From: Escherichia phage vB_Ec-M-J
Sequence record: OQ718158.1
Reading direction: 5' to 3' (one strand)
DNA: 64,000 bases
Numbering within the stretch: position 1 is the first letter of the stretch; each line of letters starts with the position of its first letter. Below, piece after piece: positions 36,116 through 37,325 of the stretch. The notes beneath the pieces are model-generated. The model worked only from the letters and a program-made list of their open reading frames with translations, was not told where the DNA came from and did no database searches. A program made the position numbers and the translations under genes.

Positions 36116-36143
36116 TTGACTAAATAGTTCAGTACTGTATAAT
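36116..36143 (+). promoter_or_regulatory. sigma70-type promoter, repeated cassette copy 1
   Basis: ttgactaaatagttcagtactg then TATAAT. Confidence 0.6.
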
Positions 36144-36174
36144 GTTTGTATCTTAACTTATATGGCAACTTGAT

Positions 36175-36540
36175 ATGTTTAGTGAATATGAAGAAGCAAT
36201 AAAACACAACATTGAAGATTCACATAACTTCCAATTTTATAATTGGGATGAACTAATGAAATTGTACTTACAGTGGGTTGAAGATGAAGAAACTTCTGAA
36301 CAACGAACTGTTATGTTAAACATTTCGTTACGTAAAGACCTTAGTTCAATTAGTGTTGAAGTTATGACATCTTCAACTTATGCAGAAGAAGATCATAATC
36401 CCTATGTTTCAGGTACTTCCCCTGTACCAAAGACTGAAGAAGAATATTTTCAAACGAGTACTGTACAAGAACCATTATTCACTTATGAGTTCTATAAGTA
36501 CTTGATTGGCAAATTCAAAAAAATGCGAATTAATTCTTGA
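36175..36540 (+). CDS. FQxS-motif family protein (121 aa)
   Basis: TEEEYFQTSTVQE. Confidence 0.7.
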   Translation: MFSEYEEAIKHNIEDSHNFQFYNWDELMKLYLQWVEDEETSEQRTVMLNISLRKDLSSISVEVMTSSTYAEEDHNPYVSGTSPVPKTEEEYFQTSTVQEPLFTYEFYKYLIGKFKKMRINS

Positions 36541-36565
36541 CTAAATAGTTCAGTACTGATATAAT
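36537..36565 (+). promoter_or_regulatory. sigma70-type promoter, repeated cassette copy 2
   Basis: Identical 22-nt ttgactaaatagttcagtactg then aTATAAT; -35 overlaps stop codon. Confidence 0.6.
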
Positions 36566-36571
36566 GAATTC

Positions 36572-36912
36572 CACAATCAGACGTATATGGTGTAAGTTAC
36601 GTCGATGTAATCCAGAACAAGATCTCTGGTACTCTAGGAAGTGGTGAATGTTAACCTAGACGGGTTTGATAATTGGACGATAGGCAATTATTACTTGACT
36701 AGCAGGTTTAAACTAGAGGTGACAGTCCTTTACCAAACTGGAAAACCGGATGGACTTTTATTTAAAAGGGTAAGGCGTGGAAATATGTTTACAGTAGTTG
36801 CTTTTAGTAGCCTGTACGCCCCACGTCAAGGTAGCCGAAAGGCAAGTTAAAACGGGTGGTTATAAAGCTGAATTAACAGCGGCGTTTAAAAGCGTCACCA
36901 TCCATTTTTTTT
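36572..36912 (+). ncRNA. candidate structured non-coding RNA (~340 nt), unknown class
   Basis: No well-initiated ORF; locally elevated GC; several hairpins; bounded by promoter copy 2 and T8 run at 36905-36912. Confidence 0.3.
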
Positions 36913-36928
36913 AATTAAAGTTGGTGAT

Positions 36929-37300
36929 ATGAGTGTTAAAGACATTTCAAAGTATGAAGAGTTTCTTAAATCATTTTTGAATTCAGAATTAACGACCGAC
37001 CATACCAATAACTGGTGTCAAGATAATCCAGGAATTCGCATTTTCAATGGATATGGTGAATCATTTCTTATAAATGACGATGAAATTGTTTTTGAATCAT
37101 TTGAAGAAATAAAAAGGACAAATAACACTTTACGTGATATAATAAATAGTATAAATGCTCAATACATTACCTTCAAGCTAAGTGCTGATGCAGAAGATGA
37201 ATTTCAGAAAAGCACAGTATATGAAAATGTGTTTCCACATGAATTAAATTCTGTGATATTTAAAGTGTTGGATAAGGTTTTTTCTGAAAATAGTACTTGA
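36929..37300 (+). CDS. FQxS-like family protein (123 aa)
   Basis: AEDEFQKSTVYEN. Confidence 0.7.
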   Translation: MSVKDISKYEEFLKSFLNSELTTDHTNNWCQDNPGIRIFNGYGESFLINDDEIVFESFEEIKRTNNTLRDIINSINAQYITFKLSADAEDEFQKSTVYENVFPHELNSVIFKVLDKVFSENST

Positions 37301-37325
37301 CTAAATAGTTCAGTACTGATAAAAT
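37297..37325 (+). promoter_or_regulatory. promoter cassette copy 3 driving tRNA cluster
   Basis: Same 22-nt cassette, -10 gaTAAAAT; predicted start at about 37332, the first tRNA nucleotide. Confidence 0.55.

Follow-up and report, generated by a model that had tools for sequence, protein, structure and literature searches.

T4-type phages carry elements called PeSLs (promoter-early stem-loops), in which a strong sigma-70 promoter with A/T-rich upstream DNA is combined with a stem-loop terminator; found behind stop codons in plastic regions, they bring about modular shuffling (Arbiol et al. 2010, PMC2839356; Comeau et al. 2014, PMC4122927). RpoD-like promoters with an UP-like element have been predicted in phage CBB, concentrated in an early region of small open reading frames (ORFs) (PMC5259590), and PA5oct, which depends on the host polymerase, has predicted TTGAC/TATAATA promoters (PMC7318152). 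Here we analyse a window of 64,000 nucleotides (nt) from Escherichia phage vB_Ec-M-J (sequence record OQ718158.1), the window being the whole stretch of DNA under study, numbered from its first letter. In it a 22-nt sequence, TTGACTAAATAGTTCAGTACTG, stands three times directly before or one base before a -10 box; the resulting -35 to -10 units, here called cassette copies 1 to 3, lie upstream of a small ORF, of two conserved non-coding RNAs (RNA-A and RNA-B) and of a transfer RNA (tRNA) gene, respectively.

In a 121Q-like jumbo phage (Asteriusvirus, Rak2-like), we read the three 22-mers as copies of a single portable cassette that holds a sigma-70 early promoter, a reading to which we give a probability of roughly 0.7. 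Host RNA polymerase with sigma-70 would read an A-rich tract, the -35 TTGACT, a 16- or 17-bp spacer, in copies 2 and 3 also TGn, and the -10 TATAAT or TAAAAT. Each copy would start its own short unit: copy 1 that of a 121-aa ORFan, copy 2 that of the two non-coding RNAs, ending at a hairpin and a run of eight T, and copy 3 that of tRNA-Ser, with a start probably at or a few nucleotides from the mature 5' end. Recombination or gene conversion between neighbouring promoter copies would have multiplied and homogenised them, and the copies would act as short homology patches for the insertion, deletion and exchange of tRNA genes, RNA-A and a 9-codon mini-ORF between related phages. Sequence anatomy, distribution, breakpoints and conservation were observed directly; from them we infer promoter activity, start sites and the mechanism of recombination. 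As promoters the elements are ordinary, and the palindrome in their spacer and the RNAs downstream are the unexpected parts.

The closest described system is the PeSL. Like it, the cassette is a short repeated unit with a consensus sigma-70 early promoter and an A/T-rich upstream tract, it stands directly after the stop codon of a small gene in a plastic, ORFan-rich region, and the breakpoints of insertions, deletions and replacements between close relatives fall at its copies. Unlike PeSLs, which share only hexamers and structure and drive ORFans, cassette copies lack a stable stem-loop or terminator, share the entire spacer sequence and would mostly drive tRNA or non-coding RNA genes; the spacer also holds a palindrome over-represented across the clade of Rak2-like jumbo phages. 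The cassette is PeSL-like in its working and is not a PeSL. A 29-bp cassette that is copied, homogenised and used as a joint for tRNA and RNA modules would broaden the PeSL idea to cover stable-RNA genes and the Rak2-like jumbo phages. The promoters of CBB, PA5oct and GAP32 (for GAP32, GenBank 'regulatory' features) resemble the cassette in their TTGAC(A)/TATAAT hexamers and A-rich upstream DNA, in clustering among short hypothetical genes on one strand and in host-polymerase dependence, but the reports describe consensus promoters only, with no identical multi-copy cassettes, link to stable RNAs, recombination joints or AGTACT palindrome. In a literature search on CAGTACTG or AGTACT in phages, on Asteriusvirus promoters and on the RaK2 genome paper, whose coverage was incomplete and which leaves novelty unproven, the cassette, the palindrome and the RNAs were undescribed.

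Anatomy of the three cassette copies

The 4 kb round the cassettes (35000-39000) are 92-98% identical to Escherichia phages Ecwhy_1, EC.P1, WPEC3, 121Q and PBECO4, all of the genus Asteriusvirus, Rak2-like jumbo myoviruses with genomes of ~350 kb. By this sequence match the window is Asteriusvirus DNA of a 121Q/PBECO4-like, Rak2-like jumbo phage. Its G+C content is 35%, ~123 of its 126 called ORFs lie on the + strand, and ARAGORN finds five tRNA genes at 35.4-38.8 kb.

As a first reading of the sequence by itself (the sequence-only reading) had reported, the 22-mer is exact at 36116-36137, 36537-36558 and 37297-37318, all on the + strand, and each occurrence is followed by a -10 box (Table 1). 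The window has no further match at up to 3 mismatches; 100 shuffles give an expectation of 0, with not one match in any of them, which rules out a chance origin. The relation to stop codons that had been described also holds: copy 1 begins 9 nt past the TGA of ORF 35942-36106, and in copies 2 and 3 the TGA of the upstream ORF forms bases 2-4 of the -35 hexamer. This packing, with the TGA of one ORF inside the TTGAC of the next promoter, recurs in the window (36537-36540, 37297-37300 and 53944-53947).

Scored against TTGACA/TATAAT, copies 1 and 2 match at 11/12 positions and copy 3 at 10/12, with spacers all within 16-18 bp. The extended -10 motif TGn of copies 2 and 3 is made of the terminal TG of the spacer palindrome and the A that follows the 22-mer. 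A-tracts lie upstream of copy 1 (gatgAAAAAgc) and copy 2 (caAAAAAAtgcg), and in copy 3 a second AGTACT (37292-37297) abuts the -35. Every copy points the same way as the genes and has an ORF, a conserved RNA or a tRNA 6-31 nt downstream. Each is, from its hexamers and spacing, a near-consensus sigma-70 promoter and presumably active.

Identity among the copies stops almost exactly at the promoter. It extends beyond the 22-mer by only 1 nt to the left (a C) and 0-3 nt to the right, so that the shared stretch runs from one base before the -35 hexamer up to the -10 hexamer, between unrelated flanks. A larger segmental duplication is ruled out by the unrelated flanks beyond these 1-3 nt.

A consensus promoter in this genome does not require such a spacer. 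We scanned the window for pairs of hexamers that each match at 5/6 positions and called sites strong if they reached at least 11/12. Of the promoter-like sites returned, 45 lie on the + and 9 on the - strand; the 35 strong + strand sites have an A-rich tract at -47..-37 in 14 cases and TGn in 12, and their spacers are nearly all unrelated. Since ~30 promoters are equally close to consensus and have unrelated spacers, RNA polymerase does not need the cassette spacer, and its identity in the three copies therefore reflects copying or gene conversion. The sequence-only reading had offered a conserved extended recognition element as one origin of the identity; as a requirement of the polymerase, this falls with the unrelated spacers of the other consensus promoters. 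A regulatory role of the spacer palindrome is possible.

Sigma-70 transcription canonically starts 7 nt after the -10 box. Between the -10 of copy 3 and tRNA-Ser(GCU) lies a 6-nt gap, TAATTT, which by this spacing argument would place the start of copy 3 at A37332, the first nucleotide of the tRNA. The start at this nucleotide had been proposed before; the spacing agrees, and the 6-nt TAATTT gap is kept in the diverged promoters that occupy the copy-3 site in WPEC3 and ELP-22. The other cassette-tRNA junctions have gaps of 10-12 nt. Predicted leaders at such junctions are, as a rule, very short or absent.

Cassette copies and rearrangements in related phages

Duplication by recombination, the other origin that had been suggested, is supported by four observations. 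First, the identity is limited to the promoter, as described above: the flank alignment that had been proposed as a search for recombination junctions finds unrelated flanks within the window and, between relatives, alignment breakpoints that fall on cassette copies.

Second, the copies cluster locally. The whole 121Q contig (348,532 bp) contains the exact 22-mer only three times, all within this ~1.3-kb region. A census of seven Asteriusvirus sequences, which allowed up to 4 mismatches, found 25 cassette copies that differ at 0-2 positions. Fifteen of the 25 stand before stable RNAs (tRNA genes, immediately 3' of the copy, in 8 cases, RNA-A in 6 and RNA-B in 1), 6 precede the gp128-like ORF and 1 precedes unassigned sequence; in the remaining 3 the -10 is replaced by the AGGA..ATG of a 9-codon mini-ORF (MFKDERPDL).

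Third, four rearrangements among these phages have a boundary at cassette copies. The module behind the cassette that succeeds the gp128-like gene is RNA-A in the window, Ecwhy_1 and WPEC3, but in E9.1, 121Q and a metagenome contig it is the mini-ORF and a second cassette, an insert of ~70 bp flanked by two cassettes (the E9.1/121Q rearrangement). At the same place ELP-22 has tRNA-Gly, a coding sequence, a cassette, the mini-ORF and a further cassette, a cassette-flanked insert of ~350 bp. In JNE01 the cassette leads directly into RNA-B, and RNA-A (window 36567-36762) is missing right after the -10. The BLAST blocks mark these joints closely: they stop and resume inside the cassette at 36559/36536 for E9.1, 121Q and the metagenome contig and at 36566/36536 for ELP-22, and the JNE01 block stops at 36566, just past the -10, with the alignment picking up at 36763. 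The fourth rearrangement (121Q/JNE01/WPEC3) concerns the cassette after gp130, behind which some phages have tRNA-Ser(GCU), whereas 121Q and JNE01 have another tRNA-Ser gene; WPEC3 carries this second tRNA-Ser too, behind a further cassette copy ~0.9 kb downstream. The promoter itself has probably also been exchanged at this site. WPEC3 and ELP-22 have a diverged promoter there (TGGACA...), yet the WPEC3 gp130 gene beside it is ~96% identical, which argues for conversion or replacement.

Fourth, RaK2, of the genus Alcyoneusvirus, has a homogenised cassette variant of its own, aaaaaGTG-TTGAACAAAAAGTTCAGTACTG-ATATAAT, present in 4-5 copies within 1.5 kb before tRNA-Arg, tRNA-Ser and RNA-B. Paralogous copies within a genome are closer to each other than to the copies of the other genus, as expected from concerted evolution or from copying that was local and recent.

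In RaK2 (locus L005, 20209-20345) and JNE01 (L013, 10535-10600), behind a cassette copy stands GGCCCTTTACTCTCAAGTGGTTAGAGAAT..., which resembles the 5' part of an unannotated tRNA. This sequence adjoins an HNH endonuclease gene, just upstream of it in RaK2 and just downstream in JNE01, and may, from its sequence, be an interrupted or intron-containing tRNA.

Table 1. Positions of the cassette copies, their downstream units and related features; positions are those of the window unless preceded by the number of another locus (L).
Feature	Position	Strand	Description
Cassette copy 1	36116..36143	+	-35 TTGACT 36116-36121; 16-nt spacer ending CAGTACTG; -10 TATAAT 36138-36143; upstream of ORF 36175-36540
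Cassette copy 2	36537..36565	+	-35 TTGACT containing TGA stop of ORF 36175-36540; 17-nt spacer; TGn; -10 TATAAT 36560-36565; upstream of RNA-A/RNA-B
Cassette copy 3	37297..37325	+	-35 TTGACT containing TGA stop of ORF 36929-37300; 17-nt spacer; TGn; -10 TAAAAT 37320-37325; upstream of tRNA-Ser
ORF, 121 aa	36175..36540	+	121Q gp128 homologue; predicted transcription unit of copy 1
RNA-A	36567..36765	+	conserved structured non-coding RNA of ~195 nt, directly 3' of copy 2; covariation-supported helices, pseudoknots
RNA-B	36769..36912	+	conserved non-coding module 36769-36904; end hairpin of GGGTGG 36854-36859 with CCATCC within 36898-36903; T8 36905-36912
ORF, 123 aa	36929..37300	+	121Q gp130 homologue; stop codon within -35 of copy 3
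tRNA-Ser(GCU)	37332..37421	+	ARAGORN; first nucleotide at predicted +1 of copy 3
Related promoter	53596..53623	+	TTGACA; 16-nt spacer ending CAGTACTG; TATAAT, then GTTTATATCAA; predicted to drive ORF 53669-53947
Promoter	53944..53972	+	TTGACT containing TGA of ORF 53669-53947; GTACTG after -35; TATAAT, GTTTATATCAA; no CAGTACTG before -10; predicted to drive ORF 54066-54374
Related promoter	57905..57932	+	TTGACA; 16-nt spacer ending TAGTACTG; TATAAT, then GGTT; stop of ORF 57679-57921 in spacer
RNA-A homologues	L005 18545-18744, L006 1499-1698, L007 1501-1693, L021 400-598, L008 1390-1592, L018 292-492, L015 120-330, L028, L025		
RNA-B homologues	L005 18790-18935, L013 7031-7170; L009 1502-1560		L009 (Kuravirus): 5' half

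The spacer palindrome and competing explanations

In all three copies a 10-bp palindrome, TCAGTACTGA, lies between the -35 and -10 hexamers and overlaps the core promoter; (T)TCAGTACTG(A), which makes up the 3' half of the spacer, exemplifies a palindrome in great excess throughout Rak2-like genomes. AGTACT is the most over-represented hexamer of the window, with 171 occurrences against 21.5 expected (~8-fold), and CAGTACTG occurs 43 times against 0.65 expected (~66-fold), in a context that extends to TTCAGTACTGAA. The hexamer is spread evenly (7-17 per 4 kb, one per ~375 bp, 2.67 per kb), and 152 of the 171 occurrences are inside ORFs, at 66/30/52 in the three codon phases. Codon usage is ruled out as the source of the excess, as all three phases are used and synonymous-codon shuffles give 59 +/- 6 against 171; biased repair of the very-short-patch type is rejected as well, no one-off neighbour being strongly depleted.

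RaK2 (L005), GAP32 (L022) and a remote stretch of 121Q (200-249 kb, L023) show the same 7-8-fold excess, which the T4 and Pm5461 loci lack. Conservation of AGTACT sites among Asteriusvirus genomes is above that of arbitrary hexamers (0.95 against 0.66, 0.81 against 0.57, 0.70 against 0.40 and 0.74 against 0.48), whereas single sites are not conserved towards RaK2 (0.18 against 0.19); what is maintained across genera appears, from these comparisons, to be density and not position. In 50 kb sampled from E. coli K-12 there are 3 AGTACT (0.06 per kb), so that the window is ~45-fold denser. Other palindromes are purged: 28 of the 64 six-base palindromes are wholly absent from the window, the same set is absent from 121Q 200-249 kb and nearly the same set from GAP32, and GCGC occurs 0 times against 58 expected. 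The avoidance was noted in RaK2 (L005) as well. RaK2 DNA has been reported to resist many restriction enzymes (PMC3622015); palindrome avoidance may explain this resistance without invoking modification.

The ~8-fold, even enrichment of AGTACT amid this purging, together with its ~45-fold density over the host sample, suggests a further and decidedly tentative proposal, which we consider improbable though worth stating: AGTACT, the core of TTCAGTACTGAA, could be a maintained 'self' mark of Rak2-like jumbo phage DNA that is read by a phage protein, and the cassette promoters could be a dedicated, factor-controlled class for phage stable RNAs, including RNA-A. Chi and DNA uptake sequences are over-represented short words that mark 'self' DNA. 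AGTACT is like them a short, dense, even and frame-independent word that is kept across genera despite site turnover, an analogy only; it differs in that AGTACT and CAGTACTG are palindromic and have no known reader protein, so that this is resemblance and not membership. One palindrome enriched in at least three genera (Asteriusvirus, Alcyoneusvirus and Mimasvirus) that otherwise avoid palindromes to an extreme degree would point to a recognition system at the level of DNA and supplies a concrete sequence for it.

Some points weigh against the reading of the 22-mers as copies of one portable cassette. AGTACT stands exactly 7-8 nt before the -10 in four of the 35 strong promoters and in copy 3 (10/12), where 0.09 would be expected per offset, and a second AGTACT often abuts the -35; this fixed offset makes some selection on the spacer palindrome likely, and drift with conversion is maybe not the whole story. 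The predicted starts of copy 2 (~36572-36573) would clip the first bases of the conserved RNA-A. A literature search for 5' ends of Asteriusvirus transcripts or for expression data found none, so the use and timing of the promoters are inferred. Homing endonuclease genes, finally, are common in this region of the relatives and could cause some of the mosaicism.

The first of these points also supports the likeliest alternative, which we regard as possible though doubtful: the spacer would be kept by selection, with TCAGTACTGA bound by a phage factor that recognises AGTACT genome-wide and switches the stable-RNA promoters on or off, often with a second AGTACT at the -35 whose centre is 20 bp from the first. 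The palindrome is indeed between the hexamers in every copy, and Asteriusvirus genomes conserve AGTACT sites beyond the background level. The -35 is abutted by a second AGTAC not only in copy 3 and in the extra copies of E9.1, 121Q and ELP-22 but also in the metagenome contig L025, which differs in the -35-proximal half of the spacer yet keeps CAGTACTG-TATAAT; the RaK2 variant keeps CAGTACTG too. A word at ~2.7 sites per kb (~900 per genome by extrapolation), mostly intragenic and in all codon phases, is however hardly a classical operator, and ~30 of the 35 strong promoters lack the palindrome. The -35-proximal half of the spacer, AAATAGTT, is not palindromic and is also identical among the copies, which copying explains better, and a candidate binding protein was not identified.

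Homing offers a different account of the rearrangements, in which HNH or Seg-like endonucleases in the tRNA region are the main cause of mosaicism and the cassette is merely close to cleavage sites or co-conversion tracts. SegB-type homing in the tRNA region of T4 is documented. HNH endonuclease genes lie 1-3 kb from cassettes in WPEC3, JNE01 and RaK2, and segB is annotated in L010, but the window has no endonuclease gene at 35.3-38 kb. Four independent rearrangements, moreover, have a boundary inside or adjoining a 29-bp promoter, and two of the four are cassette-flanked on both sides, the signature of recombination between repeats. Homing as the main cause is on this evidence unlikely.

It is less likely still that the cassette is an extended promoter whose spacer is contacted by a phage-specific sigma factor or a phage-modified polymerase. 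Rak2-like phages do encode RpoD-like sigma factors (RaK2 ORF244 in L005; CBB_513, PMC5259590), and the spacer is identical in the three copies, but the hexamers are already a near-perfect host sigma-70 consensus and another -35, TGAAACG, marks the separate class of promoters that was proposed for CBB and GAP32 (PMC5259590). The spacer, moreover, varies between genera (RaK2 AACAAAAAGTTCAGTACTG) and at the same site within Asteriusvirus, and most promoters of this early-type region have unrelated spacers. That the cassettes are true PeSLs, composite elements whose stem-loop would stop read-through from the upstream gene, is the least credible alternative, for although they have a weak inverted repeat (GACT-AAAT-AGTT), in copy 3 the longer repeat AGTACT..AGTACT, and a position as in PMC2839356 (A/T-rich, behind a stop codon and in front of a small gene), shuffles fold at least as well as copies 1 and 2 (-3.5 and -2.3 kcal/mol; z = +0.80 and +0.65), the -9.1 kcal/mol of copy 3 (z = -1.74) comes from its second, upstream AGTACT, there is no G+C-rich stem or T-run, and neither folding nor a terminator scan, negative at the cassettes, supports a terminator hairpin.

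RNA-A, RNA-B and other features of the window

The 340 nt after copy 2 contain no credible ORF, yet they are far better conserved than the genes beside them, which barely align with RaK2: identity to RaK2 is ~93% over aligned positions, or 80.5% by BLAST, which counts a 42-nt RaK2 insertion as gaps. That insertion is itself a cassette-type promoter placed before RNA-B. Together with the JNE01 cassette fused to the second half of the region, it indicates that the region holds two modules. A 69-aa ORF with a GTG start (36641-36850) was rejected as the product of copy 2: a 2-nt deletion and the 42-nt insertion of RaK2 fall inside it, its substitutions show no codon periodicity and its DNA is far more conserved than the adjacent genes.

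RNA-A is predicted, by comparative analysis, to fold into a 36-pair structure with long-range and pseudoknot helices. In a 10-sequence alignment, 95.8% of these positions are paired as against 29-40% with slid partners, and 16 pairs change on both sides, although the helices were chosen from the same alignment and the controls are therefore optimistic. Its homologues stand between tRNA genes in the T4-like Bragavirus phages PM2, Pm5461 and SdyM_006 and in the T5-like Proteus phage 2 (Novosibvirus), and its core occurs in four Aeromonas phages (65, AS-zj, AP1 and P19), T4-like as well, and in contigs from IMG/VR and metagenomes, always near tRNAs. RNA-A is present in the tRNA clusters of three unrelated phage families (Rak2-like, T4-like and T5-like), where it stands behind a promoter or directly between two tRNAs; its direct bounding by tRNA genes in the T4-like and T5-like phages implies that it would be released there by tRNA processing. 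The 5' half of RNA-B is also found in Kuravirus phages, and its terminal hairpin is repeated after tRNA-Ser in RaK2 (L005 20143-20194).

Searches against known families returned nothing. Rfam 15 (4227 families) has no match in 36566-36912 at E <=5 and none for RNA-A homologues in six other loci at E <=1, the RNA-A core pattern has 0 matches in 185,579 cellular species genomes, ARAGORN found no tmRNA, and neither RNA-A nor RNA-B has similarity to rnaC or rnaD of T4. These two T4 RNAs (annotated in NC_000866) are like RNA-A and RNA-B in lying in or beside tRNA clusters; RNA-A differs in being longer (~195 nt) and pseudoknotted and in occurring in three unrelated phage families. A conserved RNA outside Rfam that is common to unrelated lytic phages bears on the old question of what phage stable RNAs do.

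Among the other strong promoters, those at 53596, 53944 and 57905 had been given a common extended block by the sequence-only reading. The block is present at 53596 (CAGTACTGTATAATGTTT) and 57905 (TAGTACTGTATAATGGTT), where (C/T)AGTACTG stands directly 5' of TATAATG, but not at 53944, where GTACTG directly follows the -35 and only GTATAATGTTTATATCAAA is in common with 53596. The leader of the 53944 promoter holds a long inverted repeat at 53983-54050 (GGAATGCAGTGA...TCACTGCGTTTCC), and between it and the start codon at 54066 lies a T-rich stretch; from its sequence, the repeat may be an attenuator or leader structure.

The gp128-like ORF downstream of copy 1 is fast-evolving, with substitutions even over codon positions. 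Upstream of copy 1, three 54-aa paralogues (MTHEEWM...) lie in tandem and overlap (35620-35784, 35781-35945 and 35942-36106), and a remoter copy lies further upstream at 34121-34291. E9.1 and ELP-22 have only two MTHEEWM paralogues, so that the copy number differs among relatives.

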